A DNA stretch of 62,292 nucleotides, counting the filler. It is 6 parts of 6 records of this genome, joined end to end, with 100 filler letters (N's around TTAATTAATTAA, not from the genome) between each part and the next. Parts side by side here need not be neighbours in the genome. Positions count along the whole stretch, not along the records: positions 50,708 to 62,292 come from SRR31156797_9649; 5 more parts are not named here. The stretch is one strand, 5' to 3'. The position numbers and the translations under genes are program-made. The notes beneath the pieces are model-generated. The model searched no databases, had not been told where the DNA came from, and worked only from the letters and a program-made list of their open reading frames with translations. Shown piece by piece: positions 14,826-62,292 of the stretch. How positions within the stretch are numbered: position 1 is the stretch's first letter; every line of letters starts with the position of its first letter.

Positions 14826-14925
14826 NNNNNNNNNNNNNNNNNNNNNNNNNNNNNNNNNNNNNNNNNNNNTTAATTAATTAANNNNNNNNNNNNNNNNNNN
14901 NNNNNNNNNNNNNNNNNNNNNNNNN
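14826..14925. other. Artificial contig spacer
   Basis: N44-TTAATTAATTAA-N44, which gives stops in all six frames. Confidence 0.99.
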
Positions 14926-31672: not shown

Positions 31673-32746
31673 TTACCTCATTGTAACAAATTCCTTTAAC
31701 TTCAATATAACTTTTTCCATATCGTCTTTTGTACCGATACTAATACGCAAGTAGTCAGATATCCGATCAGGCTTTTTAAAGTGTCTTACTAATATCTTAT
31801 TATACTTTAAGTATTTGAATATATCAACTGCATCATGTTTATTATGCTTGACAAACACAAAATTCGTATAAGAATTAGTAGTGGAAAATCCTAATTTCTT
31901 TATCTCTGATATAAAAAACTCACGGGTATTTACTACTCTTTGACAGATATCATTCATATATTCATTGTCAAGTATTGCTTGTGTAGCACCTGCCTGGCAT
32001 ATAGTATCCAATGAGTATGAATTAAATGAGTTTTTTACCCTTATTACACCATCAATTAAATGTGGCTGTGCCATAACATAACCGCATCTTAGTCCTGCCA
32101 GTGAATGAGATTTTGATAGTGTTCTCACTACAACCAGATTATCATAATCTGGTATTAGTTTTCCCGCCGTTTTCCCGCCAAAATCAATATATGCTTCGTC
32201 AACTATTACAACCTTACTAGGATTGTTGTCCAAGACTATTTTGATTTCATTTAGAGTTAATAGCTCGCCTGTGGGTGCATTGGGGTTAGCAAGAATTATT
32301 CCGCTGCAATCTAGATTCCTGTAATCATCAACATTAATTTTTAAGTCATTATCCAGCGGTATTTCTCTGTAACTGAGTTCAAACAATTTACAGTAAACAG
32401 GATAAAAAGAATACGTAATATCTGGAAAAATAACATCCTTTTGAGTATCAAAGAATGCGTAGAAACAGAATGCAAGCACCTCATCAGAACCATTACCTGT
32501 GTACACATAGTCTATGTTGGGAAGTCCTTCAACATCGGTTATTGCTTGACGCAAAGTTTCACACTCCGGCTTTGAATACTTCTTAAGATTAGCATCCACA
32601 GCATCCCTCATTGCTTCAATCGCTTTAGGACTTACAGAGTATGGATTCTCATTTGTATTAAGCTTAATAATACTTTTATCATTTAATTGCTCACCGGGAA
32701 CATAGGGCGTTAAATTATTAGCTCTTTTTGATAAGAATTTATTCAT
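31673..32746 (-). CDS. hisC: Histidinol-phosphate aminotransferase
   Basis: PYVPGEQ, KLNTNENP, NGSDE, NPNAPTG, DEAY and RTLSKSHSLAGLR.G motifs. Confidence 0.92.
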   Translation of the reverse strand: MNKFLSKRANNLTPYVPGEQLNDKSIIKLNTNENPYSVSPKAIEAMRDAVDANLKKYSKPECETLRQAITDVEGLPNIDYVYTGNGSDEVLAFCFYAFFDTQKDVIFPDITYSFYPVYCKLFELSYREIPLDNDLKINVDDYRNLDCSGIILANPNAPTGELLTLNEIKIVLDNNPSKVVIVDEAYIDFGGKTAGKLIPDYDNLVVVRTLSKSHSLAGLRCGYVMAQPHLIDGVIRVKNSFNSYSLDTICQAGATQAILDNEYMNDICQRVVNTREFFISEIKKLGFSTTNSYTNFVFVKHNKHDAVDIFKYLKYNKILVRHFKKPDRISDYLRISIGTKDDMEKVILKLKEFVTMR

Positions 32747-40133: not shown

Positions 40134-43100
40134 ATGAAATTTTTTTTCCTCACACTAACTTTATTTTTATTTTATATTTTTTTGAATGCTCAAGAATATG
40201 AAATTATAAATATGAATAGCATGCCTCCTCCTGTTGGATATGAACATAAAACATTAAAGTCTATTAAAGCAGTAGTTGCAGAAGAAACATTAGATGTTCC
40301 TTGCTACTTGTGGTCATATGGGTGCTTTAATACTTGTGCTGCTATGATTGCTGCATATTACGATAATCATGGCTATGACTGTATTTATAGAGGGGGTAAA
40401 AATGGTGGAATGGCTCCAATGAAGAATCGTAAATGGAATGCATCACATTTCTATGTAGGGAATGGATATTATTTAAACTTTATGAATTCTATTTCTGCTT
40501 CAGAAAAGGGATATGATGGCCGTACGGTTGATGGTCATGTTGATGATTTTTTTGATTGGCCTTATAGTACTGCTCCAGATCCAGACCCATATATTGGAAA
40601 CACTCCTCCCCATGATTTTAGTATGGATTACTCAATAGGTGTTGATCACTGCGTTGCTGATTGGGCTGGAACAAACCAAGAATATTGGAATAATGTAGAT
40701 GCATCTACAACTTTGTTAATAGATAGAGGTAGTGGCAATAAATGTTATGATTTTACGGGATATGAGCACTTAACGGGTACCGATAGAGCTAGAGATGGTG
40801 TTCATGGATTTAAGTTATATCTTGAAGATAATACAGGTTATTCTGTTTCTGAAAACTATACCCAACTAATAGATACAGAACACAATGAAGGATTTACATT
40901 TAATGATTATATCCAGGAAATAGAAGCTGGAAGACCTATTTTTGTTTTTTTCTATGGCCATACTTGCGTTGGTATGGGGTATAAAATAGATCAAAATGGA
41001 AATGATTATATTGGTCTTTTTGATACTTGGTCCGAAAATGTAGTATGGCTCAAATGGGGAGATGACTTAATTTCTCATAGTGGACAAAAAATGGGAATGT
41101 TTGCAGTTGGAGTCATTAAGTTATATGGTCATCTAAAAAGTGGAGGCATTGATTACAATTGTGATCCGATTGTTGTTGGGCCATATGATGACTTAGAGAT
41201 AATTGATCCACCAATTAACACTGCGTTTCCTCCTTTATCTCAAGATATTATGCAGTCTAATTCTTACAGTTTTATAGCTGGAGACACAATTAACTTTTAT
41301 GCATGTTTTAATTCTTTTTATTGCGACACATGGACCACTACTTTCAACTGGAAGTTAGAACTTTATCATAAGGATGGCAATTATGAGTATATTAATGAAT
41401 CAACTCCAGGCTATACTAATTGGCCAAATTATTGTAAGTCAGGAAGTCAAATAAAATCAAAATCCCCCGCTGAACTTCCAGATTATCAATGGGAAAGAAA
41501 TGCGGAGGGAAATATTATCGGAAAGTTATACGTTGAAACATTAGATAATAATGGATATGTCAATAAAAGTGATGAAGTATTTGTTCAATTAGAATATAAG
41601 CCAAATAAACCTGTGATTAAGGTTTCGAATTATTTTAATAACACATCTAATGATATAATGTTCTCTTGGGAGGATAATAATGATGCTACCGAATATAGAA
41701 TATATTATAACTCTAATAAAATTGCAGATCAAGGTAATTCTCCTATCACCACAACAGACACTCACTTTTGCTTAAGTGGCTTAGAATTTTTTGATGAAGT
41801 TTATGTTTCTGCTCTAAATGACCAAGGAGAAAGTGATAGATCAAACATTATTAATATTGCACAATATAAAAGTCCATTATTTAATGGTAACTCTGATTAT
41901 AACTATTGCCTAACTATATCAGATAGTTGTTATGAGAACACATATGGAAGAGTTCAGGTATTAAGCAATGGTACTCTAAAACTGGATGTGACCACAAATG
42001 GAAAATATTCTCATACTTATGCTGATTATCATTTTGACTTACTAAATGAGAAGGAGATATTATTTGAATTTGATTGGAAACATTATAATGACGAAAACCA
42101 TGATTTAGACGGTGTTTTTTTCTCAAATGATGGAGGCGGAACTTTCACAAAAGTAATGTCTTTAAATCCAAGTCAATATTCTGCAAATATATTTAATCAT
42201 TTTACATTAAATATTGATAGCATTATAGAATCTAATAAAATCTTCTTAACTAATTCTTGTGTAATACGATTAAGTCATTATGATAATTATACAATGCCTT
42301 CAGATGGATTTGAGTTTCAGAATATAATCTTGAGGTCCAATTTTATTCAACCTAATGCAACCCAATCTTTATGTCTAAATGTTATAAAAGATGCTGTAAT
42401 TGCTGTTAATAACAAGCCTGGATATGAATTTGTAATAAACAATAATTATGGCAGCAATAAATCAATAAAAGCAGATGCTTGGACTCATTCAGGTTATAAA
42501 ACGCAAAACAAAAGTCTATTTGAGTTTGACTTATCTAATTTACCTGAATCAACGGTACTAAAAAAAGCTACACTTAATTTAAATGCCAAAAGTCCTCAAG
42601 TAACCGATGTGGACAAACAAATGAGTAACCTGTCAACTGGTAGTATTGGGTATAAATCAAATGCTTGCTGGCTTTTTAGAATAACAGACAGTTGGGATGA
42701 GCACTCTGTTACTTATGCATCCCAACCTTCAATTAATCAAACCAATGGGTACTATTTGCCAATATCAGAAACATATACAGAAAGTTACTTAAACTTAAAT
42801 GTAACTAATCTTGTAAACGATATGCTTAAGTATCCTGGTGCGAGTCATGGTTTTATGATGGAACTAGAAAAGGAAGATAAATATGCAAGAATGGTGTTTG
42901 CATCAAGTGACCATGAAAATGAAAGTTTACACCCTAATTTAACATTAGAATACTATATAAATGAACAAGTTTATTCCATACCATTCTCGGTGTTAGGAAA
43001 TACAAGTGATGCAACTGATAATTGGGATGTACAAGAGCGTGATGGAAATGATATTTCTTATCTTGTCTATATACCTTCTACAATGTCGATAAATGCATCT

Positions 43101-43598
43101 ACCTGCTCTAACGCAACAACATATGATACAAAAATAGAAATCTTTAAAGCAAATAAAGATAGAGTAGGAGCATATAATGATGATAATTCGTCTTGTTCAA
43201 ACAATCCTTATTCATCTGCATTATTTGACATAATACTTTCTCCCGGTTATTATTACTTTGTTGTTGATGGTTATTCTGGAGAATGTGGGGATTTTGAGTT
43301 AATTGTAACTTCAGGTAGCGGTCTAAAAAGTGGCAAATTACTTCAAGCCGAGTTCGAAGATAGTAATCATATAAATATCAAAATTTTTCCAAATCCTGCA
43401 ATTGATAAAATTCATATTACTACCGAGGATATTAATACCTATGCCAAAATCATTGATATTCATGGTAAAATATTAAAAGAATCTAAATCTAAGTCTAACA
43501 AGCATTATATGGACTGTTCTGATCTACAGAAAGGAGTATACGTAGTTCAGATAATTGGAGATAATATAATTGAATCTAGATTATTCAAAAAACAGTAA
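40134..43598 (+). CDS. T9SS-secreted multidomain papain-like (C39/C10-like) cysteine peptidase with FN3-like and DNRLRE/CBM96-like domains
   Basis: Signal peptide; WSYGC..TCAAM (Cys), GHTCVGMGY (His), DTW (Asp); FEFDLS.LP..KATL.L..RIT.SWDE..VTY; C-terminal IFPNPA...KGVYVV..FKK sorting domain. Confidence 0.8.
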   Translation: MKFFFLTLTLFLFYIFLNAQEYEIINMNSMPPPVGYEHKTLKSIKAVVAEETLDVPCYLWSYGCFNTCAAMIAAYYDNHGYDCIYRGGKNGGMAPMKNRKWNASHFYVGNGYYLNFMNSISASEKGYDGRTVDGHVDDFFDWPYSTAPDPDPYIGNTPPHDFSMDYSIGVDHCVADWAGTNQEYWNNVDASTTLLIDRGSGNKCYDFTGYEHLTGTDRARDGVHGFKLYLEDNTGYSVSENYTQLIDTEHNEGFTFNDYIQEIEAGRPIFVFFYGHTCVGMGYKIDQNGNDYIGLFDTWSENVVWLKWGDDLISHSGQKMGMFAVGVIKLYGHLKSGGIDYNCDPIVVGPYDDLEIIDPPINTAFPPLSQDIMQSNSYSFIAGDTINFYACFNSFYCDTWTTTFNWKLELYHKDGNYEYINESTPGYTNWPNYCKSGSQIKSKSPAELPDYQWERNAEGNIIGKLYVETLDNNGYVNKSDEVFVQLEYKPNKPVIKVSNYFNNTSNDIMFSWEDNNDATEYRIYYNSNKIADQGNSPITTTDTHFCLSGLEFFDEVYVSALNDQGESDRSNIINIAQYKSPLFNGNSDYNYCLTISDSCYENTYGRVQVLSNGTLKLDVTTNGKYSHTYADYHFDLLNEKEILFEFDWKHYNDENHDLDGVFFSNDGGGTFTKVMSLNPSQYSANIFNHFTLNIDSIIESNKIFLTNSCVIRLSHYDNYTMPSDGFEFQNIILRSNFIQPNATQSLCLNVIKDAVIAVNNKPGYEFVINNNYGSNKSIKADAWTHSGYKTQNKSLFEFDLSNLPESTVLKKATLNLNAKSPQVTDVDKQMSNLSTGSIGYKSNACWLFRITDSWDEHSVTYASQPSINQTNGYYLPISETYTESYLNLNVTNLVNDMLKYPGASHGFMMELEKEDKYARMVFASSDHENESLHPNLTLEYYINEQVYSIPFSVLGNTSDATDNWDVQERDGNDISYLVYIPSTMSINASTCSNATTYDTKIEIFKANKDRVGAYNDDNSSCSNNPYSSALFDIILSPGYYYFVVDGYSGECGDFELIVTSGSGLKSGKLLQAEFEDSNHINIKIFPNPAIDKIHITTEDINTYAKIIDIHGKILKESKSKSNKHYMDCSDLQKGVYVVQIIGDNIIESRLFKKQ

Positions 43599-44236: not shown

Positions 44237-45031
44237 GGTGGTGTATTAACTGGTGAAGTAAAAGATGTATTGCTTCTTGATGTTACCCCACTTTCATTAG
44301 GTATTGAAACAATGGGTGGTGTAATGACTAAGTTGATTGAAGCGAACACGACAATTCCAACTAAAAAGTCAGAAACATTTACAACAGCTGCGGATAATCA
44401 GCCTTCTGTAGAAATTCATATTGTACAGGGTGAGCGTCCAATGGCTGCACAAAATAAAACAATTGGTCGTTTCCACTTAGACGGAATTCCACCAGCACAA
44501 CGTGGTGTACCTCAAATTGAAGTATCATTTGATATTGATGCCAATGGTATTCTTCACGTAACAGCTAAGGATAAGTCAACAGGAAAAGAGCAAAGTATTC
44601 GTATCGAAGCTTCTTCTGGATTAAGCGAAGACGAAATCAAGCGTATGAAAGATGAAGCTGCTGCTAATGCGGAAGCTGATAAAACTGCCAAAGAAAAAAT
44701 CGATAAGATGAATGGCGCTGACAGTTTGATTTTCCAAACAGAAAAACAACTGAAAGAGTTTGGTGATAAGTTACCAGCTGACAAAAAGGCACCTATCGAA
44801 GCGGCTCTTGAAAAATTAAAAGCGGCTCACAAAGCTGAAGATTTAGCAGGTATTGACGCTGCAACAACAGAGTTGAATACAGTATTCCAGGCTGCGTCTC
44901 AGGAAATGTATAATGCAAGTCAGGCACAAGGTGGAGCACAACCAGGACCAGATGCTGGTCAGGCACAAGGAGGTGAAGCTAAAGGTGGCGATGACGAAGT
45001 TACTGATGTAGATTTTGAAGAAGTGAAGTAA
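44237..45031 (+). CDS. dnaK: Chaperone DnaK (5' partial)
   Basis: [21 protein letters not shown] and DVDFEEVK tail. Confidence 0.97.
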
Positions 45032-50607: not shown

Positions 50608-50707
50608 NNNNNNNNNNNNNNNNNNNNNNNNNNNNNNNNNNNNNNNNNNNNTTAATTAATTAANNNNNNNNNNNNNNNNNNNNNNNNNNNNNNNNNNNNN
50701 NNNNNNN
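50608..50707. other. Artificial contig spacer
   Basis: N44-TTAATTAATTAA-N44. Confidence 0.99.
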
Positions 50708-50708
50708 T

Positions 50709-52280
50709 TTAGAGGTAGGGTTTCTCTGAGTATTTTTTCTGGGGACCAACGGTGTCACCCAGCAGGGCATCCGAAGCCGGGCCGGTTGACGGGGTCAGCT
50801 CAACCCCCATGGCCTTGGCAAGGATCCTGGGAATGTCGGTGTTGTCAATGAACCCGTTGAAGAACTGGGAGCCGGCACCCTCACAGGAGAGGGGAATCAC
50901 GCTGGCCGTATGCACATAGGAGGTCCAGTTGAGCCGGGCCCTGTAGGAGACCAGCTGGGCAACGGCGATCATGGTGGGGGTGTACTCGTAACCGTAGTTG
51001 GTCTGCTCCTCATAGGGAAGTGTCTGGTTGCGGTCTTCCACCTCCATGGCCTTGGTGAGCGTAAGCTTTTCGCCCTCGGTCAGGTCGGTGAGGCCGAAAT
51101 GTTCTTCGACATGGGCGATATAGGCCTGGTGGCGCTCCGCAACATTCTTGTATTTCTTGTAGATGCCGGGATAGAGATACCAGAGAGTATCTTCGGTGGA
51201 CGCCTTGACCTTGGTGAGCTCGTTCAGCTTGAGAAAGTAGCCCTTGGAGTCGAGGCTGATCCCCATGGCCATGCCGCCGGTCTCGTGGTCCGCGGCAACA
51301 ATGATGAGGGTCTCATCCGCATGGGCCTTGTAAAACTCATAGGCCTCGGAAATGGCGGCGTCAAGAGCAAGGGTATCCCAGATGGTTGCAGCCGCGTCGT
51401 GGCAGTGGGCGGCATAGTCGATCTTCCCCCCCTCAACCATCATGAAAAACGGCTTTTCCTGGGCTTTCAGCACCTGGATTCCCTTGGCTGTCATCTCGGC
51501 AAGGGAAGGCATGGAATTTTCGATCTGGGTGCTGTTCCTGCGATCGATCTCATAGGCGATGGTGGAGTAGGCCAGGGGTGCCATGACCTTGTCCCCTTTT
51601 TTCGGCTCAAATGCCCGGAAGGCGTCCCGCCCTTTTTCGCCCACAAAGGTGGTGTACCCCTTTGCCTGGAACTCCGCGACAAGATCCCTGGCATCCTTGC
51701 GCTTGGACTTCAGTCCCTGGTCGTTGCCCTTTTTAACAAAATGGCGAAACCCGCCGCCGGCAAAATAATCAAACCCGGAATTGAGCTGGTCAACGGCGAT
51801 CTCATTCTCATTGGACCGGCTCATGTTATGGGCGGAAAAGGCCGCCGGCGTTGCATGGGTGATACGGGTGGTTGTTGCGATACCCACGGCATACCCATTG
51901 TCCCGGACCGCTTCGGCAATGGTCTTGACGTTGGTCCCGTCGGGAAGCTTCGCGATCACCCCGTTGGTGGTCTTGAATCCGGTGGCAAGGGCGGTTCCGC
52001 CCGCAGCGCTGTCCGTGACCAAGGTGTTGGCGGAATGGGTCGTGACCAGGGCCGAGCCTGAAAAGCTGTTCATCAAAAGCCTTGCATCGGGATTTTTGGT
52101 CTCCACCTTGTAAAAATACTGGGCGGCCTGGCGCTGGGCCGGGCCCATGCCGTCACCAATAAAATAAAAAACATACTTGGGGGCGTTTGCCGCAAAGACA
52201 ACCGACCCCATGAGAACCACAAAAAAACTCACCATTACATTCACAAGAATCAACCGCATTCGTTTCCTGCTCATACTCAT
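50709..52280 (-). CDS. Alkaline phosphatase (PhoA family)
   Basis: Signal peptide; IGDGMG, TDSAA, HATPA, EGGKID..AH..D and ADHETGG motifs. Confidence 0.93.
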   Translation of the reverse strand: MSMSRKRMRLILVNVMVSFFVVLMGSVVFAANAPKYVFYFIGDGMGPAQRQAAQYFYKVETKNPDARLLMNSFSGSALVTTHSANTLVTDSAAGGTALATGFKTTNGVIAKLPDGTNVKTIAEAVRDNGYAVGIATTTRITHATPAAFSAHNMSRSNENEIAVDQLNSGFDYFAGGGFRHFVKKGNDQGLKSKRKDARDLVAEFQAKGYTTFVGEKGRDAFRAFEPKKGDKVMAPLAYSTIAYEIDRRNSTQIENSMPSLAEMTAKGIQVLKAQEKPFFMMVEGGKIDYAAHCHDAAATIWDTLALDAAISEAYEFYKAHADETLIIVAADHETGGMAMGISLDSKGYFLKLNELTKVKASTEDTLWYLYPGIYKKYKNVAERHQAYIAHVEEHFGLTDLTEGEKLTLTKAMEVEDRNQTLPYEEQTNYGYEYTPTMIAVAQLVSYRARLNWTSYVHTASVIPLSCEGAGSQFFNGFIDNTDIPRILAKAMGVELTPSTGPASDALLGDTVGPQKKYSEKPYL

Positions 52281-52524
52281 CTCCTTTAAGGGTTAAATAT
52301 AAGAAATACCTGTTTGACACGCTTGTTACCGCCGGGCACCACCACGGGTGGTAACTCTTTGAAACACCGTTCAAAAAGTATAGAGTTCTATACAGAACTA
52401 TTTTGCAATCCAACTTTTGTCAATATTTTTTTATCCGCAGCGAGTTAATAATTGTTGAATTTATGATGGGTTCCCCATTTAACAGGGGCCATACGTATAG
52501 AGGAGTATACACCTATAAGACAAT

Positions 52525-52556
52525 AAAAAAGGGGACGAATCAACGTCCCCTTTTTT
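52525..52556 (-). terminator. Terminator after the permease
   Basis: AAAAAAGGGGACG/CGTCCCCTTTTTT. Confidence 0.75.
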
Positions 52557-52591
52557 ATAATCCCTACAAACCCGCACAGGCTGTGTTCGGA

Positions 52592-53656
52592 TCAGCCCTT
52601 GTTTGACCTGGGAATAAAGGTTCTAAGGATCAGGCAAAGCAGGACCAATGCCATGGCGATGGAAAAAAAACCGTGCTCCTCCAGGGAATCGTGCTGCACC
52701 CATGAGGTGATGTCGATGCCCAGCCAGCTGTAGACGACGTTGGCCGCCATGCCGATGGCAAGGGAACACAGGATGATGGAGCCAAGATAGACGCCCGTGG
52801 CCCGTTTGCCGAGGATCTTTGACACCACCGTGAGGGAGGCGGCATTGGTGGCGGGCCCTGCCAGGAGAAACACCAGGGCGGCGCCGGGGGAAAGCCCCTT
52901 CAGGGCAAGGGCGGCGGCAATGGGCGTGGAGGCCGTGGCGCACACATAAAGGGGAACGGCCACCGCCAGCATGGCCACCATGGAAAAAATGCCGTCCCCA
53001 AGGTAGCGCTCGATCAGCTGGGGAGAGAGGAATGCCGTGATAAGGCCTGCGATCACGATACCGGCAAGAAACCAGCGGCCGATATCTTCAAACAGATCGC
53101 CAAAGGCAAACTTCATGCCACGGACCAGCTTCTGGGAAAGGGTGGGAGCAACCAGTGTTTCGCCTGCACCGCAGGCGCATCCGCCCCCTCAGGTGGGGGG
53201 ATCGATAAACAAAGGCTCCATGGAAAGAGATGGCTTCTTACGCTCCAGCAGGTTGACAAACAGCCCTGTCGTGGTTGCCGTGAAAAACGCGGCCACGGGC
53301 CGCAACACCGTCATGACCGGATCCAGCAGGGCCCAGGTCACGGCCACCGAGTCCACCCCGGTCTCGGGGGTGGAGATAAGAAAGGCGGATGCCGCCCCCT
53401 TGCTCGCCCCCTGCTCCCGCAATCCGGCGGCGGCCGGCAGCACCCCGCAGCTGCAAAGGGGAAGGGGAACGCCAAAGGCCGACGCCTTCAGCACGCTTGC
53501 CGCATCACCATTGCCCAGGTGCCGTGCAACGATATCTTCGGGAACAAAGGCCTTCAAAAGCCCTGCCACCACAAATCCAAACAGAATAAAGCCGGAAGAC
53601 TCCACCAGAATCTCCCAGCATGCCACCGCGATTTTTATAACAATTGCCTCTATCAT
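52592..53656 (-). CDS. SO_0444/ArsP(DUF318)-type metal efflux permease, probable selenoprotein (Sec at codon 156, 354 aa)
   Basis: N-half (PLPLCSCGV..P, STPETGVDS) and C-half (YVCATASTP, LLAGPATN) are in the same frame, separated only by TGA 53189-53191 in PPT-U-GGGCACG. SECIS-like hairpin downstream. Confidence 0.8.
53161..53177 (-). other. Putative bacterial SECIS element
   Basis: CGCCUGC-GGU-GCAGGCG hairpin starting 11 nt after the in-frame UGA; G-first apical loop 18 nt from the UGA. Confidence 0.65.
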
Positions 53657-53697
53657 CTTACCCTCTATCCTTTAACCACAACCCAAAAGCATGAAAG

Positions 53698-53715
53698 TAT
53701 GCGTACATATTCATA
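53698..53715. promoter_or_regulatory. ArsR/SmtB operator upstream of the permease
   Basis: Minus strand TATGAATA-TG-TACGCATA; two arm mismatches from the palindrome at 54205. Confidence 0.65.
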
Positions 53716-53827
53716 CATTTTCGCCAAAAAAAGAGCAGAACGCCTGCTCACCCGGGCCCGGGTCATTCCCGGGCCGCCCCCTATTCTTTTACCATCCGAT
53801 GGCCATTCCGCCACGCAACCGGAAAGG

Positions 53828-54205
53828 TTATTCCATCACATGGTCCATCCCGTCCCGCAACAGGGAAAAGATGTGGTCGTCATCCAGGCTGTAAAAGACA
53901 TTCCTGCCCTCTTTCCTGTATTTGACGACCTTTGCCGTCCGAAGCACCCTCAGCTGATGGGATACGGCGGACTGGTTCATGTCCAGAACGTCCACGAGAT
54001 CACACACGCAAAGCTCAGCGTGCAGCAGCGCATGGAGAATCCGGATCCTTGTATGGTCTGAAAGCACCTTGAACAGATCTGCCAGATCCCGAAGGGTTTC
54101 ATCGCCGACCATACACTTTTTAACGGCGTCCACAGCTTCCTTGTGAACACAGACCGTTTTACAAAGGTCGTCTCCATCCGTATCTATATGTATCCGCTCA
54201 TTCAT
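53828..54205 (-). CDS. ArsR/SmtB (CadC/SmtB-like) metalloregulator
   Basis: N-terminal CKTVC.H, ELCVCDL, SAVSHQLR.L and alpha5 D-x-H-x10-H-x2-E site. Confidence 0.92.
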   Translation of the reverse strand: MNERIHIDTDGDDLCKTVCVHKEAVDAVKKCMVGDETLRDLADLFKVLSDHTRIRILHALLHAELCVCDLVDVLDMNQSAVSHQLRVLRTAKVVKYRKEGRNVFYSLDDDHIFSLLRDGMDHVME

Positions 54206-54246
54206 ATGAATACCTATTCATACATTCATTTATCATCATTGGTCAA
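54205..54246 (-). promoter_or_regulatory. Autoregulated promoter/operator of the ArsR/SmtB gene
   Basis: Perfect palindrome TATGAATA-CC-TATTCATA (54205-54222) abutting the ATG; TTGACC -35 at 54246-54241. Confidence 0.7.
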
Positions 54247-54288
54247 GCCTTTTATGGCTTTTTTCCCCAAAAGAGCCGGAGCGCCGAA

Positions 54289-54903
54289 TCAGCAGCGTTT
54301 CAAGACCCCCAGGGTCCGGGTGACGGACACCGGTTCAAACGCCCCGGAAGCCAGGGCCGTCTCGTAGATCTGCCGGGGCGCCTGTCCCCCCTCTGCCGGA
54401 TCGAAAAAGATATCGTGGATCACCAGAAAGCCCTGCTCCATGATGTGGGGCGACCAGAGGGCATAATCGTTGACCGCCGCCTCAAAGCTGTGGCCCCCGT
54501 CAATGAAGAGAAGGGAAAGGGGAGTGGACCACATCTTTCCCGCAACAGCGGACTCCGCCACCATGGGGATCACCGCCTGGGAAAGCCCTGCCCGGTCCAG
54601 GGTGTCCTGAAATACGCCCAGGGTATTGACCCGGTCAAGGGTTGCGTCAAACAGGTCGGGATCAAAATACTCCTCCCCGGGCTGCTGTTCTTCCGATCCC
54701 CGGTGATGGTCCACGGAAAAGAGGATGCCCCCCCGCTCCATGCAGGCCTTGCCGATGAAATAGGCCGACTTGCCGCAATAGGAGCCTATCTCAAGGCAGG
54801 GACCGAATTCCGCCGCCGCAAGGGCTGTCTCGTAAAGTTTAGTCGCTTCGTCATCCGCCATGAACCCCTTGATGGTCTCTGAAAATTTAAAATCAATTCC
54901 CAT
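54289..54903 (-). CDS. Class I SAM-dependent methyltransferase (Methyltransf_24-like)
   Basis: LEIGSYCGKS, DHHRGSEE, FIDGGHS and IHD motifs; overlaps the ftsK end. Confidence 0.85.
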   Translation of the reverse strand: MGIDFKFSETIKGFMADDEATKLYETALAAAEFGPCLEIGSYCGKSAYFIGKACMERGGILFSVDHHRGSEEQQPGEEYFDPDLFDATLDRVNTLGVFQDTLDRAGLSQAVIPMVAESAVAGKMWSTPLSLLFIDGGHSFEAAVNDYALWSPHIMEQGFLVIHDIFFDPAEGGQAPRQIYETALASGAFEPVSVTRTLGVLKRC

Positions 54904-57133
54904 AGTCTTTTACAAGTACCTCCCTCTGTTTTGCCCCCTCCTGGGGTCCGATGATTCCCTCTTTTTCCATGGTCTCGATGATCCGTGCCGCCCGGTTATA
55001 GCCGATCCTCAGATGGCGCTGGACACTTGAGATGGAGGCCTGCCGGGTCTTTGTGACCAGGGCCACGGCCTCATCGTACTTTTCGTCATACTCGGTCTCT
55101 TCATTGTCACTGCCGGGCTCCTCCGCCCGTTCGGTCACATCCTCCACATATTCCGGCGCCTGTTGCTCCTTGAGGTAGGCCGTGATCCTTGAGATTTCGG
55201 TCTCGGAAATGTAGGCCCCCTGGATTCGCTGGAGCCGTCCGGTTCCCGGCGGCAGAAAAAGCATGTCACCGTTGCCCAGAAGCCGCTCCGAACCGTTGGT
55301 GTCCAGAATGGTCCGGGAGTCGATCTTGGAAGACACCTGAAAGGATATTCGCGTGGGAAAGTTTGCCTTGATGATACCGGTGAGTACGTCCACGGAGGGC
55401 CGCTGGGTGGCCAGGATCAGGTGGATACCGGCGGCCCTTGCCATCTGGGCCAAGCGTATGAGGGCCGATTCCACATCCTTGGAGGCCACCATCATGAGAT
55501 CGGCAAACTCATCCACGATCACGACGATGTAGGGCAGTCTTTCGCCACCGCCACCGCCACCGGCCTCTTCCGTGTCCTTAAGCCCGCCCTTGTCCGCCAG
55601 CTCATTGAACTGGAGGATGTTCCGCACCCCGTTCCGGGCCAGCAGCTCATAGCGCCGCTCCATCTCCCGCACCGCCCAGAACAGGGCGTTGGTGGCCTTT
55701 TTCATGTCCGTGACCACGGGGGATATCAGGTGGGGGATACCATCGTAGACCGACAGCTCGATGCGCTTGGGATCCACCATGATAAACTTGACCTCTTCGG
55801 GCGTTGCCTTGTAAAGAAGGCTGATGATCATGGAATTGAGACCGACACTCTTTCCCGTACCCGTGGCCCCTGCGATGAGCAAATGGGGCATGCGGTCCAT
55901 GGCCGCTGCAATGGGAACGCCCACGATATCCTTGCCAAGGGCCAGGGACAATTTGGAGGCCGAGTCCGCAAATGCCGTGGAGGTGAGGATCTCCCTCAGG
56001 GTAACAAACTCCCGCTTCTCGTTGGGAATTTCCACCCCCACCACATCCTTGCCGGGAATGGGGGCAATGATACGGATACTCAAGGCGCTCAGGGCAAGAG
56101 CCAGGTCGTCGGTCAAGTTGACGATCTTGCTGATCTTCACCCCCGTGGCCGGACGGTACTCAAAAGTGGTGATAACAGGGCCGGGCAGGATCTCCACCAC
56201 CTCCCCGGAGACACCGAAATCGTTGAGCTTCTTCTCCAGGATCTCCCCTTTTTTCCGCAGCCGCTCAATGTTGACGCTCCGTTTTGACGCTTTTTTCTCG
56301 TTGAGCAGGGAGACCGGGGGAAGCTGGAATCCGGATCGTTCCCGCAAATCCCTGGGCTGGCCCGGGGCCTTCCGTGCCGGGGGCTGGGGCGCCATCTGGG
56401 TGATGACCGGCTCGGCCGGGATCACTTTTTCAAGCATCTTTTTGGGAGATTTGCGCTTCTTCAGGCGCTTGATTTCCGGTTCCGGTTCAAGGGCTTTGAT
56501 CTCAATGGTCTTGAGCCGTTTTTCCCGTTGTTCCTTCCACTGGCCGATCCGCTGTTTTCCCCGGCCGAAAAGGGTGGTTGCCTGCTTTGCCGTAAAGCGG
56601 CCAAAACGGATGAAGCACCCTTTTATAAAGAGCAGCACGGTCACCATGGAGATGCCGGTGGTGAGGACAAATCCGATAACAAAGAGCACCAGGAGAATAA
56701 TGACACAACCGGTAAGGTTGGCATATTCCAACAGAAACGAGGCAAAGGGAATTCCCAGGAGGCCTCCGGACGAGTAAGCGCTTCCCCACAGGGAATAACT
56801 CTCCCGGAACAGGGTAAGCATGCTTCCCGTGGTAAGGACCAGGAGCATCCCCCCGGCCAGGGTCATCCCGATGATCCGGTTGGACCGCCCCTGGAAGTAC
56901 CAGACGGAACAAAGCAGCATCAGCACCGGCACCCAGAACGACCCGAGGCCGAACAGGGCCACCAGCAGGCCTGACAGGTGGGCGCCCACCAGGCCGAAAC
57001 TGTTCTCGATATGATTGTGGGCCGCAAAGATGCGGGTGTTCACCGAAGGATCCACCGGGCTGTAAGAGGCAAGACTTATCGTTGTCAAGACAACGAGAAA
57101 CGCGAACAGAATGCCGGTTATCTCTTTTTTCAT
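54893..57133 (-). CDS. ftsK: DNA translocase FtsK
   Basis: N-terminal TM domain, GATGTGKS, DEFADLMM, ATQRPS and gamma domain IGYNRAAR. Confidence 0.95.
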   Translation of the reverse strand: MKKEITGILFAFLVVLTTISLASYSPVDPSVNTRIFAAHNHIENSFGLVGAHLSGLLVALFGLGSFWVPVLMLLCSVWYFQGRSNRIIGMTLAGGMLLVLTTGSMLTLFRESYSLWGSAYSSGGLLGIPFASFLLEYANLTGCVIILLVLFVIGFVLTTGISMVTVLLFIKGCFIRFGRFTAKQATTLFGRGKQRIGQWKEQREKRLKTIEIKALEPEPEIKRLKKRKSPKKMLEKVIPAEPVITQMAPQPPARKAPGQPRDLRERSGFQLPPVSLLNEKKASKRSVNIERLRKKGEILEKKLNDFGVSGEVVEILPGPVITTFEYRPATGVKISKIVNLTDDLALALSALSIRIIAPIPGKDVVGVEIPNEKREFVTLREILTSTAFADSASKLSLALGKDIVGVPIAAAMDRMPHLLIAGATGTGKSVGLNSMIISLLYKATPEEVKFIMVDPKRIELSVYDGIPHLISPVVTDMKKATNALFWAVREMERRYELLARNGVRNILQFNELADKGGLKDTEEAGGGGGGERLPYIVVIVDEFADLMMVASKDVESALIRLAQMARAAGIHLILATQRPSVDVLTGIIKANFPTRISFQVSSKIDSRTILDTNGSERLLGNGDMLFLPPGTGRLQRIQGAYISETEISRITAYLKEQQAPEYVEDVTERAEEPGSDNEETEYDEKYDEAVALVTKTRQASISSVQRHLRIGYNRAARIIETMEKEGIIGPQEGAKQREVLVKDYGN

Positions 57134-58779
57134 ACTTCGATGATGATTGGCAGAACCAAGGGCCTACGCCGGATGGTGAAAAAGAAATACTGCTTCAAGG
57201 CCTTCTGGAGTTTGGTACGGATGACATCCACCCTGGACTTGCTGCCCACCTCCACCTCTTCCACGATTTCGAGGATGACGCACTGGGCGTCGTCCACAAG
57301 GTAGCCGGTCTCGGCGCCGAACACAAACCCCTTGGAGATGAGCTCCGGACCGTAAAGCACGATGCCGGTCTCCTCGTCGATGATCATGGTGACAACCACG
57401 AGGCCGTCCTCGGAAAGGTTGCGCCGCTCCTTGAGCACGCTTCGGCCAACGTCGCCGACCCCCTTGCCGTCGATGAGCACCCTGCCGGTGTCCACCTGGC
57501 CGTCGATCCTGCCCCCGTGTTCGTCAAAAACGATCACCTTGCCGTTTTCCGCGGCCAGGACGTTTTCCCTTGGGATCCCCTGCTTTTCGGCAAGCCGTGC
57601 ATGGATGACAAGATGCCGGTACTCCCCGTGGATGGGAATGAAGTACTTGGGCTTTGTCAGGTTGATCATGAGCTTGAGCTCTTCCTGGCAGGCATGTCCG
57701 GAGACATGGACCTTGGCGACCCGGTCGTAGACCACCTCGGCCCCCCTGCGGTAGAGGTTGTTGATGATGTTGGAAATGGCCTTTTCGTTGCCGGGAATGG
57801 ATTTGGAGGACAGGATGACCGTGTCGCCCTTCTTGATATTCAAATGCTTGTGAAACCCGGTGGCCATGCGGGACAGGGCGGACATGGGCTCCCCCTGGCT
57901 GCCGGTGGTGATCACCAGGAGCTTGCTGCTCGGGCAGGTTTTGACCCGCCTGACATCCAGGCACATGTCATCGGGCCAGTCCAGGTAGCCCAGCTCCCTG
58001 GCAACGGCCACGGTCTGTTCGATACTCCGGCCGTTGAACACGATCTTGCGGTTGTTCTTCAGGGCGATATCGATGATCTGCCCGATCCTGAAGACATTGG
58101 AGGCAAACAGGGCCACGATCACCCGGCCTTCACTCTTTGCAACGATCTTGGCCAGGTTCTCCTTCACCTTCTGGTCCGACTCGGTATACCCCTCCTTCTC
58201 CACATTGGTGGAGTCGGAAAGAAGCGCCAGCACCCCCTCCTCGCCGCACTGGGAAAACCGTGAGATATCCGTGCAGTTGGACATGTCAAAGCAGTGGTTG
58301 ATCCGGAAATCCCCGGTGTGGACCACCAGGCCCACGGGGGTGCGGATGGCAAGTCCCACCACGTCCACGGTGCTGTGGCTCACCCGTATGAACTCGATCT
58401 CAAAGGGACCGATATCGATCCGGTCCGAGGGTGTGACCTGGTTCAGTTCAACCAGGTTGTGAAGGTCAAACTCCCTGAGCTTGTTCTTTACGATACTCAA
58501 GGTAAACGGCGTGCCGTACACGGGAACGGGCAATTCCTTCAGGAGATAGGAGATGGCGCCCACATGATCCTCGTGGGCATGGGTGAGCACAACCGCTTTT
58601 AACCTGTCCCTGTTCAGCCTCAGATACTCCATCTCGGGAATGACGATGTCGATGCCAAGCATGTAGTCTTCCGGGAACATGAGACCGGCGTCGATGACAA
58701 AAAGCGTGTCGTCGTACTCGACCACCATCATATTAAGGCCAATTTCACCGAGCCCCCCAAGGGGGATTATTTTCAACAT
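57130..58779 (-). CDS. rnj: Ribonuclease J
   Basis: GGLGEIG.N, THAHEDH, TGSQGEP, HVSGH and PIHGEYR motifs. Confidence 0.95.
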   Translation of the reverse strand: MLKIIPLGGLGEIGLNMMVVEYDDTLFVIDAGLMFPEDYMLGIDIVIPEMEYLRLNRDRLKAVVLTHAHEDHVGAISYLLKELPVPVYGTPFTLSIVKNKLREFDLHNLVELNQVTPSDRIDIGPFEIEFIRVSHSTVDVVGLAIRTPVGLVVHTGDFRINHCFDMSNCTDISRFSQCGEEGVLALLSDSTNVEKEGYTESDQKVKENLAKIVAKSEGRVIVALFASNVFRIGQIIDIALKNNRKIVFNGRSIEQTVAVARELGYLDWPDDMCLDVRRVKTCPSSKLLVITTGSQGEPMSALSRMATGFHKHLNIKKGDTVILSSKSIPGNEKAISNIINNLYRRGAEVVYDRVAKVHVSGHACQEELKLMINLTKPKYFIPIHGEYRHLVIHARLAEKQGIPRENVLAAENGKVIVFDEHGGRIDGQVDTGRVLIDGKGVGDVGRSVLKERRNLSEDGLVVVTMIIDEETGIVLYGPELISKGFVFGAETGYLVDDAQCVILEIVEEVEVGSKSRVDVIRTKLQKALKQYFFFTIRRRPLVLPIIIEV

Positions 58780-58797
58780 CCTAAAGATCTCCAGGGA

Positions 58798-59130
58798 TCA
58801 AATAACGATTTCAAGTTTTTCCAATACGGCATCGATCGAGCTGATGAGCCACTCCCGCTGTTGGGGGGTTGCATAGCCCATGCAGTCGCATTTGATGTTT
58901 GTTCGTATTCGCACAAGCAGTTCGCAGGCAAGGGTCGACTCGCCAAGTTCCAGGGCAAACAGGTGGGGACCGCATTTGCCGTGATCTTTCTGCAACGGGG
59001 TCAGCAAATCGCGATCCAGTTCTATCCAGTAGATCGCTCCGAGATCGCAGGGTCCGTAGTTTTCATCAAGATATTGCTTTAATCGTTCATGGTCTTGGGG
59101 TCTGAGCCCGTCAATTAGATACTGTTTCAT
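58798..59130 (-). CDS. Hypothetical protein
   Basis: 110-aa ORF (MKQYLIDGLR...KCDCMGYAT) co-oriented just upstream of rnj. Confidence 0.65.
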   Translation of the reverse strand: MKQYLIDGLRPQDHERLKQYLDENYGPCDLGAIYWIELDRDLLTPLQKDHGKCGPHLFALELGESTLACELLVRIRTNIKCDCMGYATPQQREWLISSIDAVLEKLEIVI

Positions 59131-59329
59131 AACCAGATATAAATAGCACATACCACTATATATATGCAAGATTTTATAATCGTTCACCCATTGGCCGGTG
59201 ATGGAGACCCCCTGTCTCACCCATTCTCCACACCGCCTGAAAAGGGAAACGGGGCAGGTTTATGGTATTGTGCTTTTTGCCGGAATTTGATACTCAGGCT
59301 GAGAAAAGCGTCATCAAAAGGAGAACGCC

Positions 59330-59971
59330 ATGGAACGCCCCGACGACCAAAAACAGTATTGGGACAAAAAAGCGGCAAACACGACATTCACCACGCCCCT
59401 TGCCCTTGACATTTTTAAACCCCATGTATCGCAACAGGCGACCATCCTGGATATCGGGTGCGGATACGGCCGCATCATGGACCAGCTTTGCCAACAGGGA
59501 TTCACCGGCATCGCGGGTGTAGATTTTTCCTGGGAGATGGTCAGCCTTGGGAAATCGTCCTTTCCCGGCCTGAATTTTGTCCAGGCAAGCCAGGCGCTTC
59601 CCTTCCGGGACCAAAGCGTTGACGCAGTGATCCTCATGGCGGTGCTGACCTGCATTCCGGACGACACCCGCCAGCAACGGCTCATGGACGAAATCAGCCG
59701 GGTGCTCAAAAAAAACGGCGTTCTTTACATCACCGACTTCATGATCAACACGGACCCGCGCAACCGGGAACGCTACAACCGCTGCAACAGGGGCTGCTAC
59801 GGCGTGTTCGAACTTGACGACGGCGCGCTGCTGCGCCACCACAGCCGGGATCACATGGTTCGGCTGACAAACGGGTTTGAGGAGATCCTCTTTAAGGAGA
59901 CCGTGTTTGTCACCATGCACCGGAACCGCTCAAACGGGTTTTACTATATTGGAAAGAAGCAGGGGATCTGA
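59330..59971 (+). CDS. Class I SAM-dependent methyltransferase
   Basis: ILDIGCGYG motif I; AAGGAG RBS. Confidence 0.85.
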   Translation: MERPDDQKQYWDKKAANTTFTTPLALDIFKPHVSQQATILDIGCGYGRIMDQLCQQGFTGIAGVDFSWEMVSLGKSSFPGLNFVQASQALPFRDQSVDAVILMAVLTCIPDDTRQQRLMDEISRVLKKNGVLYITDFMINTDPRNRERYNRCNRGCYGVFELDDGALLRHHSRDHMVRLTNGFEEILFKETVFVTMHRNRSNGFYYIGKKQGI

Positions 59972-60174
59972 CCGTGCACAGGATCTTCAAAACCGCGCCG
60001 GGAGCCCCCGGATCAATAAATAAAATTTTCCTTGTGTATCTCGCAAATCCATTTTATAAGAAACGTGGTCTGTCTAACAACGGACAATAACACGCAAAAT
60101 ACGATACGGATGGTCAATGGTTAGATTGGTCATCAAATTAATGCAAACTGTGCATATATAAATTAGGAGGATTT

Positions 60175-61095
60175 ATGTCAATTTTAGTATTTGGTCACAA
60201 GAATCCGGATACAGACTCTGTCTGTGCAGCCATCGCCCTGGCTGATCTCAAGAAGAAACTCGGCCAGGACATCGCACCTGCGATCCAGGGTGAGCTGACA
60301 CCTGAATCAAAGTTCGTACTTGAGAAGTTCAACGTTGAGGCACCTGCTGTTGTCACTTCCTATGCCGGCAAGGACGTTTACCTGGTGGATCATTCTGATC
60401 TTGCCCAGAGCCCCGACGACCTGGCCGAGGCCAACATCCTCGGTGTTGTCGACCATCACAAACTGGGTGACGTCACCACATCCCAGCCCCTCGAGTGCTG
60501 GATCTGGCCTGTTGGCTGCACCTGTACCGTGATCAAATCCATGTACGACTTCCACAACGTCGAGATCCCCAAAGAGATCGCCGGCATCATGCTCTGCGCA
60601 ATCCTGAGCGATACGGTCATCTTCAAGTCAGCCACCTGCACAGACGCCGATAAAAAGGCATGCGAAGGCCTTGCTGCCATTGCAGGCATCGCAGACACCC
60701 AGGAGCTGGGCATGGAGATGTTCAAGGTAAAATCCGCCGTTGACGGAACACCTGTTCGTGAGCTGGTTCTCCGTGACTACAAGGATTTCGAGATGAGCGG
60801 CAACAAGGTCGGCATCGGACAGCTTGAGGTTGTTGACCTCTCCATCCTCGATAAGGTCAAGGCCGATCTTGAGAAAGATATCGCAGCCCTCAAGGAAGAA
60901 GGCGGACGTCACAGCGTATTCCTTCTCCTCACCGACATCATCAAAGAAGGTTCCGAGATGCTCATCGCTTCTGACGACGAGTCTGTCATCGAAAAAGCCT
61001 TTGGTGTTGCTCCCGCAGACGGAAAAGCATGGCTTGACGGCGTTATGAGCCGTAAAAAACAGGTTGTTCCCAACCTTGAGAAAGCCTTTGCATAA
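60175..61095 (+). CDS. ppaC: Mn-dependent (family II) inorganic pyrophosphatase
   Basis: GHKNPDTDS, DHH, ILSDT and SRKKQ motifs; AGGAGG RBS. Confidence 0.95.
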   Translation: MSILVFGHKNPDTDSVCAAIALADLKKKLGQDIAPAIQGELTPESKFVLEKFNVEAPAVVTSYAGKDVYLVDHSDLAQSPDDLAEANILGVVDHHKLGDVTTSQPLECWIWPVGCTCTVIKSMYDFHNVEIPKEIAGIMLCAILSDTVIFKSATCTDADKKACEGLAAIAGIADTQELGMEMFKVKSAVDGTPVRELVLRDYKDFEMSGNKVGIGQLEVVDLSILDKVKADLEKDIAALKEEGGRHSVFLLLTDIIKEGSEMLIASDDESVIEKAFGVAPADGKAWLDGVMSRKKQVVPNLEKAFA

Positions 61096-61119
61096 GCTTT
61101 AGAAGCTTTAAAGTAACGT

Positions 61120-61160
61120 AAAAAAAGGGGGCGCAGGATAAACATCCTGCGCCCCCTTTT
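61120..61160. terminator. Bidirectional terminator
   Basis: AAAAGGGGGCGCAGGAT/ATCCTGCGCCCCCTTTT. Confidence 0.8.
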
Positions 61161-61199
61161 GTATTCAGCAGATCAGTCCATGCCGTCCGACCCTTTTAT

Positions 61200-62292
61200 C
61201 TACAGGTCAAACACCGTATTGATTTTTTCAGACAGCTTGGCCATGCCATAGGGTTTCTGGAGAAAATTCTCCTGTTTCGGATCAAGGATATCCACCAGAT
61301 CATCCTTTTTGCTGTATCCGCTGGAGATCAGCACCTTGGCATCGGGAACAAGGGATTTGATCCGTTCATAGGTTTCAAACCCGCTCATCTCCGGCATCAC
61401 CATGTCGAGGATGACAAGATCGACATCCCCTCCCTTTTCCTTCATGAAATCCACGGCATCCATGCCGCTGGTCACGGCCTTGACCGAGTAGCCGAGGCTC
61501 TCTATCATCTCGGAGCACACCTCGATCACTCCCTGTTCATCATCCACAAGCAGGATGGTTCCCCTGCCGCTGATGATTTCAGGCTTGTTCCTGTCGAGCC
61601 GTTTCAGGGAACGCTTTGACTGTTTCGCCGGAAGATAGAAAATAAAGGAACTGCCTTCGCCCTTTTTACTCAACACCCTGAAGGCACCGCCGTGGCTCTT
61701 GATGATGCCATAGGCCGTGGCAAGGCCCAGCCCGGTTCCGCCTCCCATCTCCTTGGTGGTAAAAAAGGGATCGAAAATTCTCTCCATGACCGTCTTGTCC
61801 ATACCCACGCCCGAGTCCACCACGGAAACCCTGACATAGCGTCCGGCCTTTGGCAGGCCGAGTTCCCTGTACTTTGACCTGGCCACGTTGACATTCTCTG
61901 TCTTGATATAGATATGCCCCCCACCCGGCATTGCCTGCCAGGCGTTTACATAGAGGTTGAGGAGCACCTGCTTGATCTGGCCCTCGTCCACCTCACAACT
62001 CCAGAGATCCTTCTGAAGGTTCTGGCGGATCACAATGCTCTTTTTGGTCCTGCCGAACATCTTGGCGGACATCTTCAGGATATAGTTGATGTTGATCATG
62101 CAGAGTTCATGGTCGCTTTTCTGGGCAAACCCCAGGAGCTGCCGGGTCATATCCGATCCTGAATTCACATAATCGTCCACGCAGCCGAGCTTTCTGAACT
62201 CGGGACTTGACGGATCCAGAGAGGTCCTCACCAGGGAGGTGTACCCCTGGATTCCCATGAGAATATTGTTGAAATCATGGGCAATCCCGCCG
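61200..62292 (-). CDS. Hybrid sensor kinase/response regulator (5' partial)
   Basis: GGIAHDFNN H-box at the window edge, FDPFFTTK, GTGLGL and a C-terminal receiver domain (LVDDE, ILDMVMP, KP). Confidence 0.9.
   Translation of the reverse strand, partial: GGIAHDFNNILMGIQGYTSLVRTSLDPSSPEFRKLGCVDDYVNSGSDMTRQLLGFAQKSDHELCMININYILKMSAKMFGRTKKSIVIRQNLQKDLWSCEVDEGQIKQVLLNLYVNAWQAMPGGGHIYIKTENVNVARSKYRELGLPKAGRYVRVSVVDSGVGMDKTVMERIFDPFFTTKEMGGGTGLGLATAYGIIKSHGGAFRVLSKKGEGSSFIFYLPAKQSKRSLKRLDRNKPEIISGRGTILLVDDEQGVIEVCSEMIESLGYSVKAVTSGMDAVDFMKEKGGDVDLVILDMVMPEMSGFETYERIKSLVPDAKVLISSGYSKKDDLVDILDPKQENFLQKPYGMAKLSEKINTVFDL

Follow-up and report, generated by a model that had tools for sequence, protein, structure and literature searches.

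A probable selenocysteine codon in the inter-repeat loop of an SO_0444-family heavy-metal efflux permease otherwise read as two open reading frames

The DNA stretch considered here (hereafter, the window) comprises 62,292 nucleotides (nt), filler included, and joins six contigs end to end. The minus strand of its last contig, which corresponds to positions 50,708 to 62,292 and to the record SRR31156797_9649, carries a gene that standard translation divides into two. Under translation table 11, open reading frames (ORFs) of 155 and 174 amino acids (aa) are obtained, both lying in the same frame, and between the ATG at 53656 and the terminal TGA at 52594..52592 the sole internal stop is a TGA at 53191..53189, codon 156. 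When this codon is read through with selenocysteine (Sec, U) in its place, the product around the stop is ...FIDPPT-U-GGGCACGAGETLVAPTLSQKLVRGMKFAFG... and the complete product (P0001) reaches 413 bits against NF033936, the SO_0444 Cu/Zn efflux model (cut-off 300), with residues 13-346 aligning to positions 1-350 of the 351 of the model, and 152.9 bits against the Pfam ArsP_1 profile, PF03773. Since the read-through product matches NF033936 from end to end, 53656..52592 was shown to be a single gene, encoding a heavy-metal efflux permease of the SO_0444 family with 8 helices. A preliminary description of the locus had already proposed that an SO_0444/ArsP-type permease was hidden there as two ORFs sharing one frame and one internal stop, which agrees with the frame and with the profile match. 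From sequence comparison, it is strongly inferred that the UGA at codon 156 is decoded as selenocysteine. The features of the locus are gathered in Table 1.

Table 1. Features of the permease gene and its surroundings, in positions of the window
Feature	Position	Strand	Remark
SO_0444-family (ArsP_1 superfamily) efflux permease gene	53656..52592	minus	354 sense codons plus terminal TGA
In-frame UGA, codon 156, proposed selenocysteine codon	53191..53189	minus	aligns to Cys in relatives
SECIS-like hairpin, 7-bp stem with GGU loop	53177..53161	minus	overlaps codons 160-166, including Cys160 and Cys162
Hydrophilic loop, codons 140-172, with U156-x3-C160-x-C162	53141..53239	minus	joins the two 4-helix halves
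Cys68-Ser69-Cys70 motif (TGC AGC TGC)	53455..53447	minus	Cys here; site of the catalogued USC form
Terminator-like hairpin with T run	52523..52558	minus	34 nt past the true stop; consensus scan only
ArsR/SmtB-family metalloregulator gene	54205..53828	minus	directly upstream; CVC motif, N-terminal C-x3-C
Artificial spacer (N run, TTAATTAATTAA, N run)	50609..50707		contig boundary

Comparison with relatives places a Cys codon where the window has its internal stop. P0002, a protein of a public collection that is 92% identical, has Cys at the codon-156 column (...LIDPNS-C-GCGCACGAGE...), and the aligned Cys-rich cluster carries Cys in most of 160 related loci. Additionally, contigs from a salt-marsh DNA run present TGC at codon 156, one base away from the TGA of the window, together with two adjoining changes that yield exactly the P0002-like Cys loop. 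An in-frame TGA in the loop was found in 10 of 80 genome loci (L001, L002, L003, L010, L011, L021, L023, L036, L055 and L067) and in 14 of 80 metagenome loci (L086-L091, L104-L107, L109, L111, L118 and L156), to which a later order-level sample added L161 and L162, so that 26 other loci altogether share this trait; duplicates are included among them, the distinct hairpin rows being 20 of 25. In three other assemblies (L001-L003), the TGA stands at the same codon as in the window. The loop-TGA loci were assigned to Desulfobacteraceae/Desulfobacterium, to Desulfuromonadales/Desulfuromonas, to a SAR324 bin and to unclassified bins, and the stops found within the matches were always TGA, apart from one ordinary end-of-gene TAA (L106). 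The preliminary description had recommended a tblastn search for TGA/Cys alternation accompanied by a hairpin, and other genomes were indeed found to carry both the TGA and the hairpin, the residue of the orthologues at this column being Cys, as it had anticipated, and not Trp, Arg or Gly.

Two orthologues present related arrangements. The metagenome orthologue L111 has in-frame TGAs at 195-197, where the Cys-Ser-Cys (CSC) motif becomes USC, and at 444-446, within the loop, with a hairpin-capable stretch after each, and its product would be a two-Sec exporter. L019 (about 1986-2020), a Cys-form orthologue from Desulfuromonadales, has a 6-bp hairpin 12 nt past a loop TGC; this hairpin, which is like that of its TGA-bearing relatives, may have been left over from a change of Sec to Cys.

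The TGA of the window is followed by a hairpin resembling the selenocysteine insertion sequence (SECIS) elements of bacteria. Its stem (CGCCUGC/GCAGGCG) is a perfect 7-bp helix closed by a GGU loop, and it starts exactly 11 nt past the TGA, just where the preliminary description had located it. In the published consensus for bacterial SECIS elements (PMC13188914), the loop measures 3-9 nt and has a G in its first two positions, the stem counts 4-16 bp, the UGA lies 16-37 nt from the loop and the folding energy is -7.5 kcal/mol or lower. The hairpin of the window lies within all these limits, with a loop of 3 nt (GGU), a stem of 7 bp, a UGA-to-loop distance of 18 nt and an energy of -12.6 kcal/mol, and among 20 hairpins that were folded the energy rule held for 19 (L023, at -7.1, being the other one) and the G rule for all 20. 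When folded alone, the hairpin of the window has a z-score of -2.49, and 3 of 200 shuffled sequences were as stable. Such stability is by itself weak evidence; the weight of the hairpin comes from its position and from comparison.

With regard to position, a stem of at least 5 bp starting 10-15 nt past the TGA was present at all 25 loop TGA sites scanned by script, the window included, and a stem of at least 6 bp at 20 of them, whereas at the loop Cys codons of the 132 loci lacking a loop TGA, used as a control, the corresponding counts were 21 and 7 of 454. In L161 and L162, which were read by eye, the hairpin lies 14 nt past the TGA. With regard to comparison, 90.7% of the cells pair in an ungapped alignment of 25 hairpins, 20 of them distinct, versus 58.4 +/- 3.3 after shuffling, and none of 500 shuffles reached the observed value; when the partners were slid by 1-3 columns, pairing dropped to 41-59%. 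Both sides of the stem change in 6 of its 7 pairs. In one compensatory pair, the partners are the silent third position of a Cys codon (TGC/TGT) and the opening base of an Ala/Thr codon (GCA/ACA); such compensation across the loop is not easily accounted for by protein coding on its own. The SECIS-like character attributed to the hairpin from the outset is therefore backed by its fit to the published bacterial model and by its covariation across relatives.

A second small stem (CCCCC...GGGGG, 53184-53200, minus strand) puts the UGA itself within a hairpin loop of the predicted fold; an analogous CCGCC...GGCGG stem is found in L010, and none in L011.

The SO_0444 family is already known to include selenoproteins. 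Haft and Gwadz (bioRxiv 10.1101/2022.07.06.499078) described that its CSC motif is sometimes USC, for instance in WP_014809615.1, and proposed that Sec acts as a metal ligand in this USC form; according to the same source, the family sits among the NCBI pipeline reference data. A 2026 review (PMC13188914) enters the family as 'UxC', with one Sec, 'GenBank annotated'. The Cys-Ser-Cys residues of the first repeat were invariant in 56 aligned sequences, and codon 68 of the window gene is TGC, so this gene has no Sec codon at the catalogued USC site. The Sec site predicted here thus differs from the catalogued one, and the loop position appears to be undescribed as far as was found: in their accessible text, Haft and Gwadz and PMC13188914 name the USC/UxC site alone, and beyond these two no literature was found tying the SO_0444 family to selenocysteine. 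The search for the loop site excluded supplementary files, and Haft and Tolstoy 2025 (mSystems), which it did not cover, could mention the site. The words 'permease', 'efflux', 'SO_0444' and 'transporter' are all absent from the deep-Sep paper (PMC12013277), and 'permease' and 'efflux' from the Olavius paper (PMC1976440). The preliminary description had left open whether the gene was already catalogued. The novelty that it assumed is lowered, given that the family is a listed selenoprotein family, and what stands is that the listed Sec site is the CSC motif and not the loop.

The relative frequency of both forms was evaluated in a sample of 201 genomes from the order to which the genome of L001 belongs, 89 of which gave a match at E 1e-60 or better. 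An internal stop was present in the matches of 31 of these 89 genomes, one in each and always TGA. The site was USC in 28 of the 31 and the loop in the remaining three (G001, which holds L001, and the genomes of L161 and L162), and in 28 of 30 order-level matches that were fetched the TGA stands in place of the first Cys of CSC. The USC form also occurs in L076, L093, L095, L103, L122 and L111. As observed in L163-L190, from 28 of the 89 matched genomes, it constitutes a separate clade with a PDLSCPVDGCCDG...HRRHH loop. An earlier impression that the loop form prevailed (24 loop versus 6 USC among the 160 loci) was rejected, as the order-level sample revealed a query bias. These counts make the catalogued USC form a common one, with the loop form as a second, rarer site present in the clade closest to the window. 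A GenBank 'permease' of 155 aa shares 91% identity with the N-terminal half of the window protein and appears to be cut off at the TGA. The public protein collection contains hundreds of fragments of this family (P0122-P0241), about 150-190 aa long and in many cases from long contigs; many may be halves of genes with a TGA at either site, some being contig-end truncations.

The loop-TGA genomes that were tested contain machinery for Sec insertion. A tRNA-Sec over the cut-off was detected in all 10 loop-TGA genomes tested, and a selB match in the same number, nine of these over the cut-off and the tenth (220.9 bits) cut at a contig end, while selA and selD were both present in the three closest relatives. 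The selD gene of these three relatives contains one in-frame TGA (G001:C1124:21989-22912, G002:C33:156-1079 and G003:C65:87168-88091), and their SelD is probably a selenoprotein itself. The search for host machinery that the preliminary description proposed thus covered the relatives, and the machinery was found in them. In the window, the tRNA and Rfam scans returned one tRNA-Leu only, located on a different contig from the gene, and a scan for in-frame TGA junctions combined with a Pfam map of 47 window ORFs yielded no further selenoprotein candidate.

The gene directly upstream of the permease belongs to the ArsR/SmtB family (HTH_5 PF01022, E 9e-16; NF033788, 102 bits, cut-off 55), and its CVC motif and N-terminal Cys pair presumably form a CadC-like thiolate site. 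The order of regulator and permease is repeated in L010, L011 and L023. A terminator-like hairpin with a T run (53733-53749, minus strand) lies between the ArsR-family gene and the start of the permease and could be an attenuator or mark a separate transcription unit. Five spacers, with cores at 14870, 25159, 34833, 44180 and 50652, join the six contigs of the window; therefore, only 50708-62292 is physically linked to the permease gene, and the rest of the window is uninformative about the host of this gene. The GC content is 0.44-0.52 at 1-25 kb, 0.27-0.39 at 25.2-50.6 kb and 0.51-0.58 at 50.7-62.3 kb (blocks of about 0.48, 0.33 and 0.55), and the record is a mixed or draft assembly. Elsewhere in the window, the first ~135 profile positions are missing from gyrA (32739-34715, minus strand), and dnaK (44270-45031, plus strand) is present from profile position 385 only; since both ends coincide with spacers, the genes are not broken but run into contig ends. 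On a low-GC contig, a protein of 1154 aa (40134-43598, plus strand) has a CBM96 module as well as a C-terminal sorting domain for type IX secretion, which points to a putative Bacteroidota-like source for that contig.

ArsP-family proteins are built of two 4-helix repeats connected by a hydrophilic loop of variable size (PMC7176098). An AlphaFold2 model of the permease, for which 56 sequences were used, reached a predicted template modelling score (pTM) of 0.76, with helices on either side of a non-helical segment at residues 140-172 and a predicted local distance difference test score (pLDDT) below 50 over residues 145-166, and the second matches of tblastn aligned the N-terminal half with the region of the C-terminal half at ~30% identity. 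Given this 4+4 helix topology, the TGA is located in the inter-repeat loop. There it is the first position of the cluster U156-x3-C160-x-C162, which corresponds to the C-x3-C-x-C-like cluster first noticed at the locus, in a loop that is variable and Cys/His-rich among relatives. Among solved structures, no sequence hit was obtained, and Foldseek against the PDB gave no match at E 0.001 or better, with template modelling (TM) scores of 0.22 or lower.

It can be proposed from these data that the hairpin at 53177..53161 would bring SelB with Sec-tRNA(Sec) to a ribosome that has paused on this UGA, so that Sec would become the first residue of the U-x3-C-x-C cluster in the flexible inter-repeat loop. 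The 4+4 topology and the basic residues that border the loop and the C-terminus suggest a cytoplasmic position for the loop, where its selenolate and thiolates could take up a thiophilic metal ion, be it Cu(I), Zn, Cd or a similar one, and hand it over to the membrane Cys-Ser-Cys site for export. Under selenium shortage, translation would stop at the UGA and only the first 4-helix half would be made. Sec may serve as a soft-metal ligand and selenium supply may gate the production of the exporter. Taken as a whole, the reading of the locus as one gene for a Sec-inserting exporter, with metal capture by the loop and a full-length product dependent on selenium, is held with considerable confidence. 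Regarding the substrate, Shewanella loihica has a family member, adjacent to ZntR, that plays an important part under zinc stress (10.1101/072470). For a putative Cu/Zn efflux activity of the window permease, the context consists of this phenotype and of the ArsR/SmtB neighbour; the family owes its name to copper and zinc phenotypes, and the substrate assignment in the window is putative.

Some observations weigh against this reading. The loop-TGA examples all come from metagenome-assembled genomes (MAGs) or metagenome contigs, with no cultured isolate among the sets compared. In its GC-rich context of 61 nt, the fold energy around the hairpin is ordinary (z -0.05; 95 of 200 shuffles), and the register of the hairpin alignment (A1) was set by eye from the hairpins, so that its pair counts lean towards structure. 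No Rfam family matches the hairpin, and a permissive threshold near the site returned two chance-level rows only. A covariance model of the hairpin (R1), built from 25 hairpins, gave one clear hit in the 62-kb window, at 28.7 bits versus 13 for the next best, but this hit is a training sequence. When R1 was run on 486 kb of loci outside its training set, L161 was recovered at E 0.69, second of 9 hits, and L162 was missed; the hairpin is convincing through where it is placed and not alone. The Sec machinery of the window's organism is deduced from relatives, and neither a tRNA-Sec nor another selenoprotein gene was seen on the 11.6-kb contig carrying the permease. Finally, the Sec content, the metal binding by the loop and the membrane side of the loop are predictions made from the letters of the DNA.

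Alternative explanations for the internal TGA were also considered. The TGA could be a nonsense mutation in an inactivated gene or a sequencing or assembly error, as might be suspected in a draft or metagenome-type assembly of six joined contigs with very different GC. However, codon 156 is covered in the likely source run at a word depth of ~98 with no variant letter, so that mapping the reads over this codon, as had been suggested at the outset, shows TGA and not TGC or TGT. In an RNA library of a different study, in which DNA carry-over is possible, a contig of 194 nt spans the TGA and the hairpin, both unchanged, with 4 differences elsewhere; together, the read depth and this contig make a sequencing error at the TGA unlikely (runs X2, X3 and X9 contain small shares of the words of the gene and were used for the codon-156 letters only). 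Besides being shared by three other assemblies, the TGA has been retained in the window and L001-L003 at synonymous divergences (dS) of 0.2-0.5, and the ratio of nonsynonymous to synonymous substitutions (dN/dS) between the window and these loci is 0.08-0.16 for the part 5' of the TGA and 0.10-0.21 for the part 3' of the loop, which denotes equal purifying selection on both sides. In the order-level sample, moreover, all 31 matches with an internal stop have exactly one. A pseudogene or an error is thus excluded, or in more cautious terms largely refuted, and retains next to no probability. Recoding without selenium, either through read-through by a near-cognate Trp or Cys tRNA or through reassignment of UGA, is equally hard to credit: nothing specific was found in its favour, the terminal codon of the gene is itself TGA, adjacent genes translated with table 11 match Pfam profiles over their full length, homologues have Cys at the aligned position, and the relatives hold the full Sec apparatus, with a selD that contains a TGA.

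A split transporter, in which the UGA would be a true stop and two 4-helix halves would assemble, the second of them initiated at the ATG at 53116, finds some basis in the internally duplicated 4-helix unit of the family, in the reported existence of 4-helix ArsP members (PMC7176098), in the ~30% identity between the halves and in the presence of an ATG after the loop. Nevertheless, the 24 codons from TGA to ATG stay in frame, with dN/dS of 0.10-0.70 (calculated from few sites) over these loop codons and an in-frame insertion of one codon within the loop of L001. The presumed restart residue, Met174, is conserved family-wide, Cys forms included (GMxFAF), whereas relatives with the CG-U-P loop (Desulfuromonas/Desulfuromonadales MAGs) have Leu in place of that Met, and in L023 the next ORF of at least 90 codons, the cut-off of the list, begins at 3322, past a conserved helix. 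A split gene would also leave the position-locked, covarying hairpin and the TGA/Cys alternation unaccounted for, and it is therefore regarded as improbable, although somewhat less so than the two explanations above. Intermediate between them in probability, and thus very unlikely, is that Sec is real and acts as a redox or selenium-status switch, for example through a selenenylsulfide with Cys160 or Cys162 that gates transport. Redox motifs of U and C are the use given to Sec in most bacterial selenoproteins (PMC13188914), and the U-x3-C-x-C cluster could form selenenylsulfide bonds; however, the gene context is that of a metal regulator and a metal exporter, the loops of the Cys forms abound in Cys and His, as metal-binding loops do, and no redox partner gene adjoins the permease.

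Within the reading of codon 156 as a Sec codon, a more speculative view can be formulated, in which the loop UGA would be a selenium-dependent product switch and not merely the means to a better ligand. Termination at the UGA would then release one complete 4-helix repeat, acting as a half-size transporter or as an inhibitor, and Sec insertion would yield the full 8-helix exporter. The loop UGA occurs in at least two hairpin/motif types, PT-U-GGxCxC and CG-U-P, and this recurrence, together with the double Sec predicted for L111, would fit selection coupling the form of the exporter to selenium supply. In addition, the SECIS stem is made of the codons for the loop Cys ligands themselves, so that the fold of the RNA and the metal site would each limit how the other can change. 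This view is considered unlikely, if less so than any of the rival explanations.

In summary, the comparative evidence gives good support to a real selenoprotein gene, within a family already known for selenoproteins. For annotation, loop-TGA genes are split in public records, and a second reference site would let pipelines call them whole. For biology, Sec would be located in a flexible, non-catalytic and probably metal-capturing loop of an exporter, a case that broadens the notion of soft-metal ligation by Sec. Moreover, the natural Sec/Cys pair, 92% identical, offers a test of the contribution of selenium to metal handling in sediment sulfate- and metal-reducing bacteria.

Among known systems, the SECIS of the fdhF type from Escherichia coli, which has 17 nt and lies 11 nt from the UGA, shares with the window a coding hairpin directly 3' of the UGA and a small apical loop with G in first place; the hairpin of the window differs in its triloop, whose 3 nt are the fewest that the model allows, and in having no bulged U. 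Regarding proteins, the ArsP organoarsenical permease (TC 2.A.119) has in common with the window protein the Pfam ArsP_1 domain and 4+4 helices with a variable loop (PMC7176098). It belongs, however, to a different subfamily with a different presumed substrate, and no Sec has been reported in it. A Cys pair is required by ArsP. SaoE (CD2367 family, SAO locus), the second-best NCBIfam hit of the window protein (179.9 bits, below the cut-off of 325), shares with it the ArsP-type superfamily and the CSC motif, but differs in its gene neighbourhood and in that no selenoprotein members are reported for it in the accessible text of Haft and Gwadz. Sec has also been proposed as a soft-metal ligand in a MerT-like mercuric transport protein, in an E1-E2 cation ATPase and in SaoP/SaoB (PMC13188914; Haft and Gwadz), which have unrelated folds and in which Sec occupies CU, UxxC or gating positions and not a disordered loop. 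The nearest known system is the catalogued USC form of the SO_0444 family itself (WP_014809615.1, from Desulfomonile tiedjei), which belongs to the same NF033936 family and presents, like the window gene, Sec in place of Cys in an exporter of thiophilic metals, with an in-frame TGA and a downstream hairpin. In the USC form, Sec takes the place of the first Cys of the invariant membrane CSC motif, whereas in the window the predicted Sec is placed 88 residues later, in the disordered inter-repeat loop, and is served by a different hairpin.

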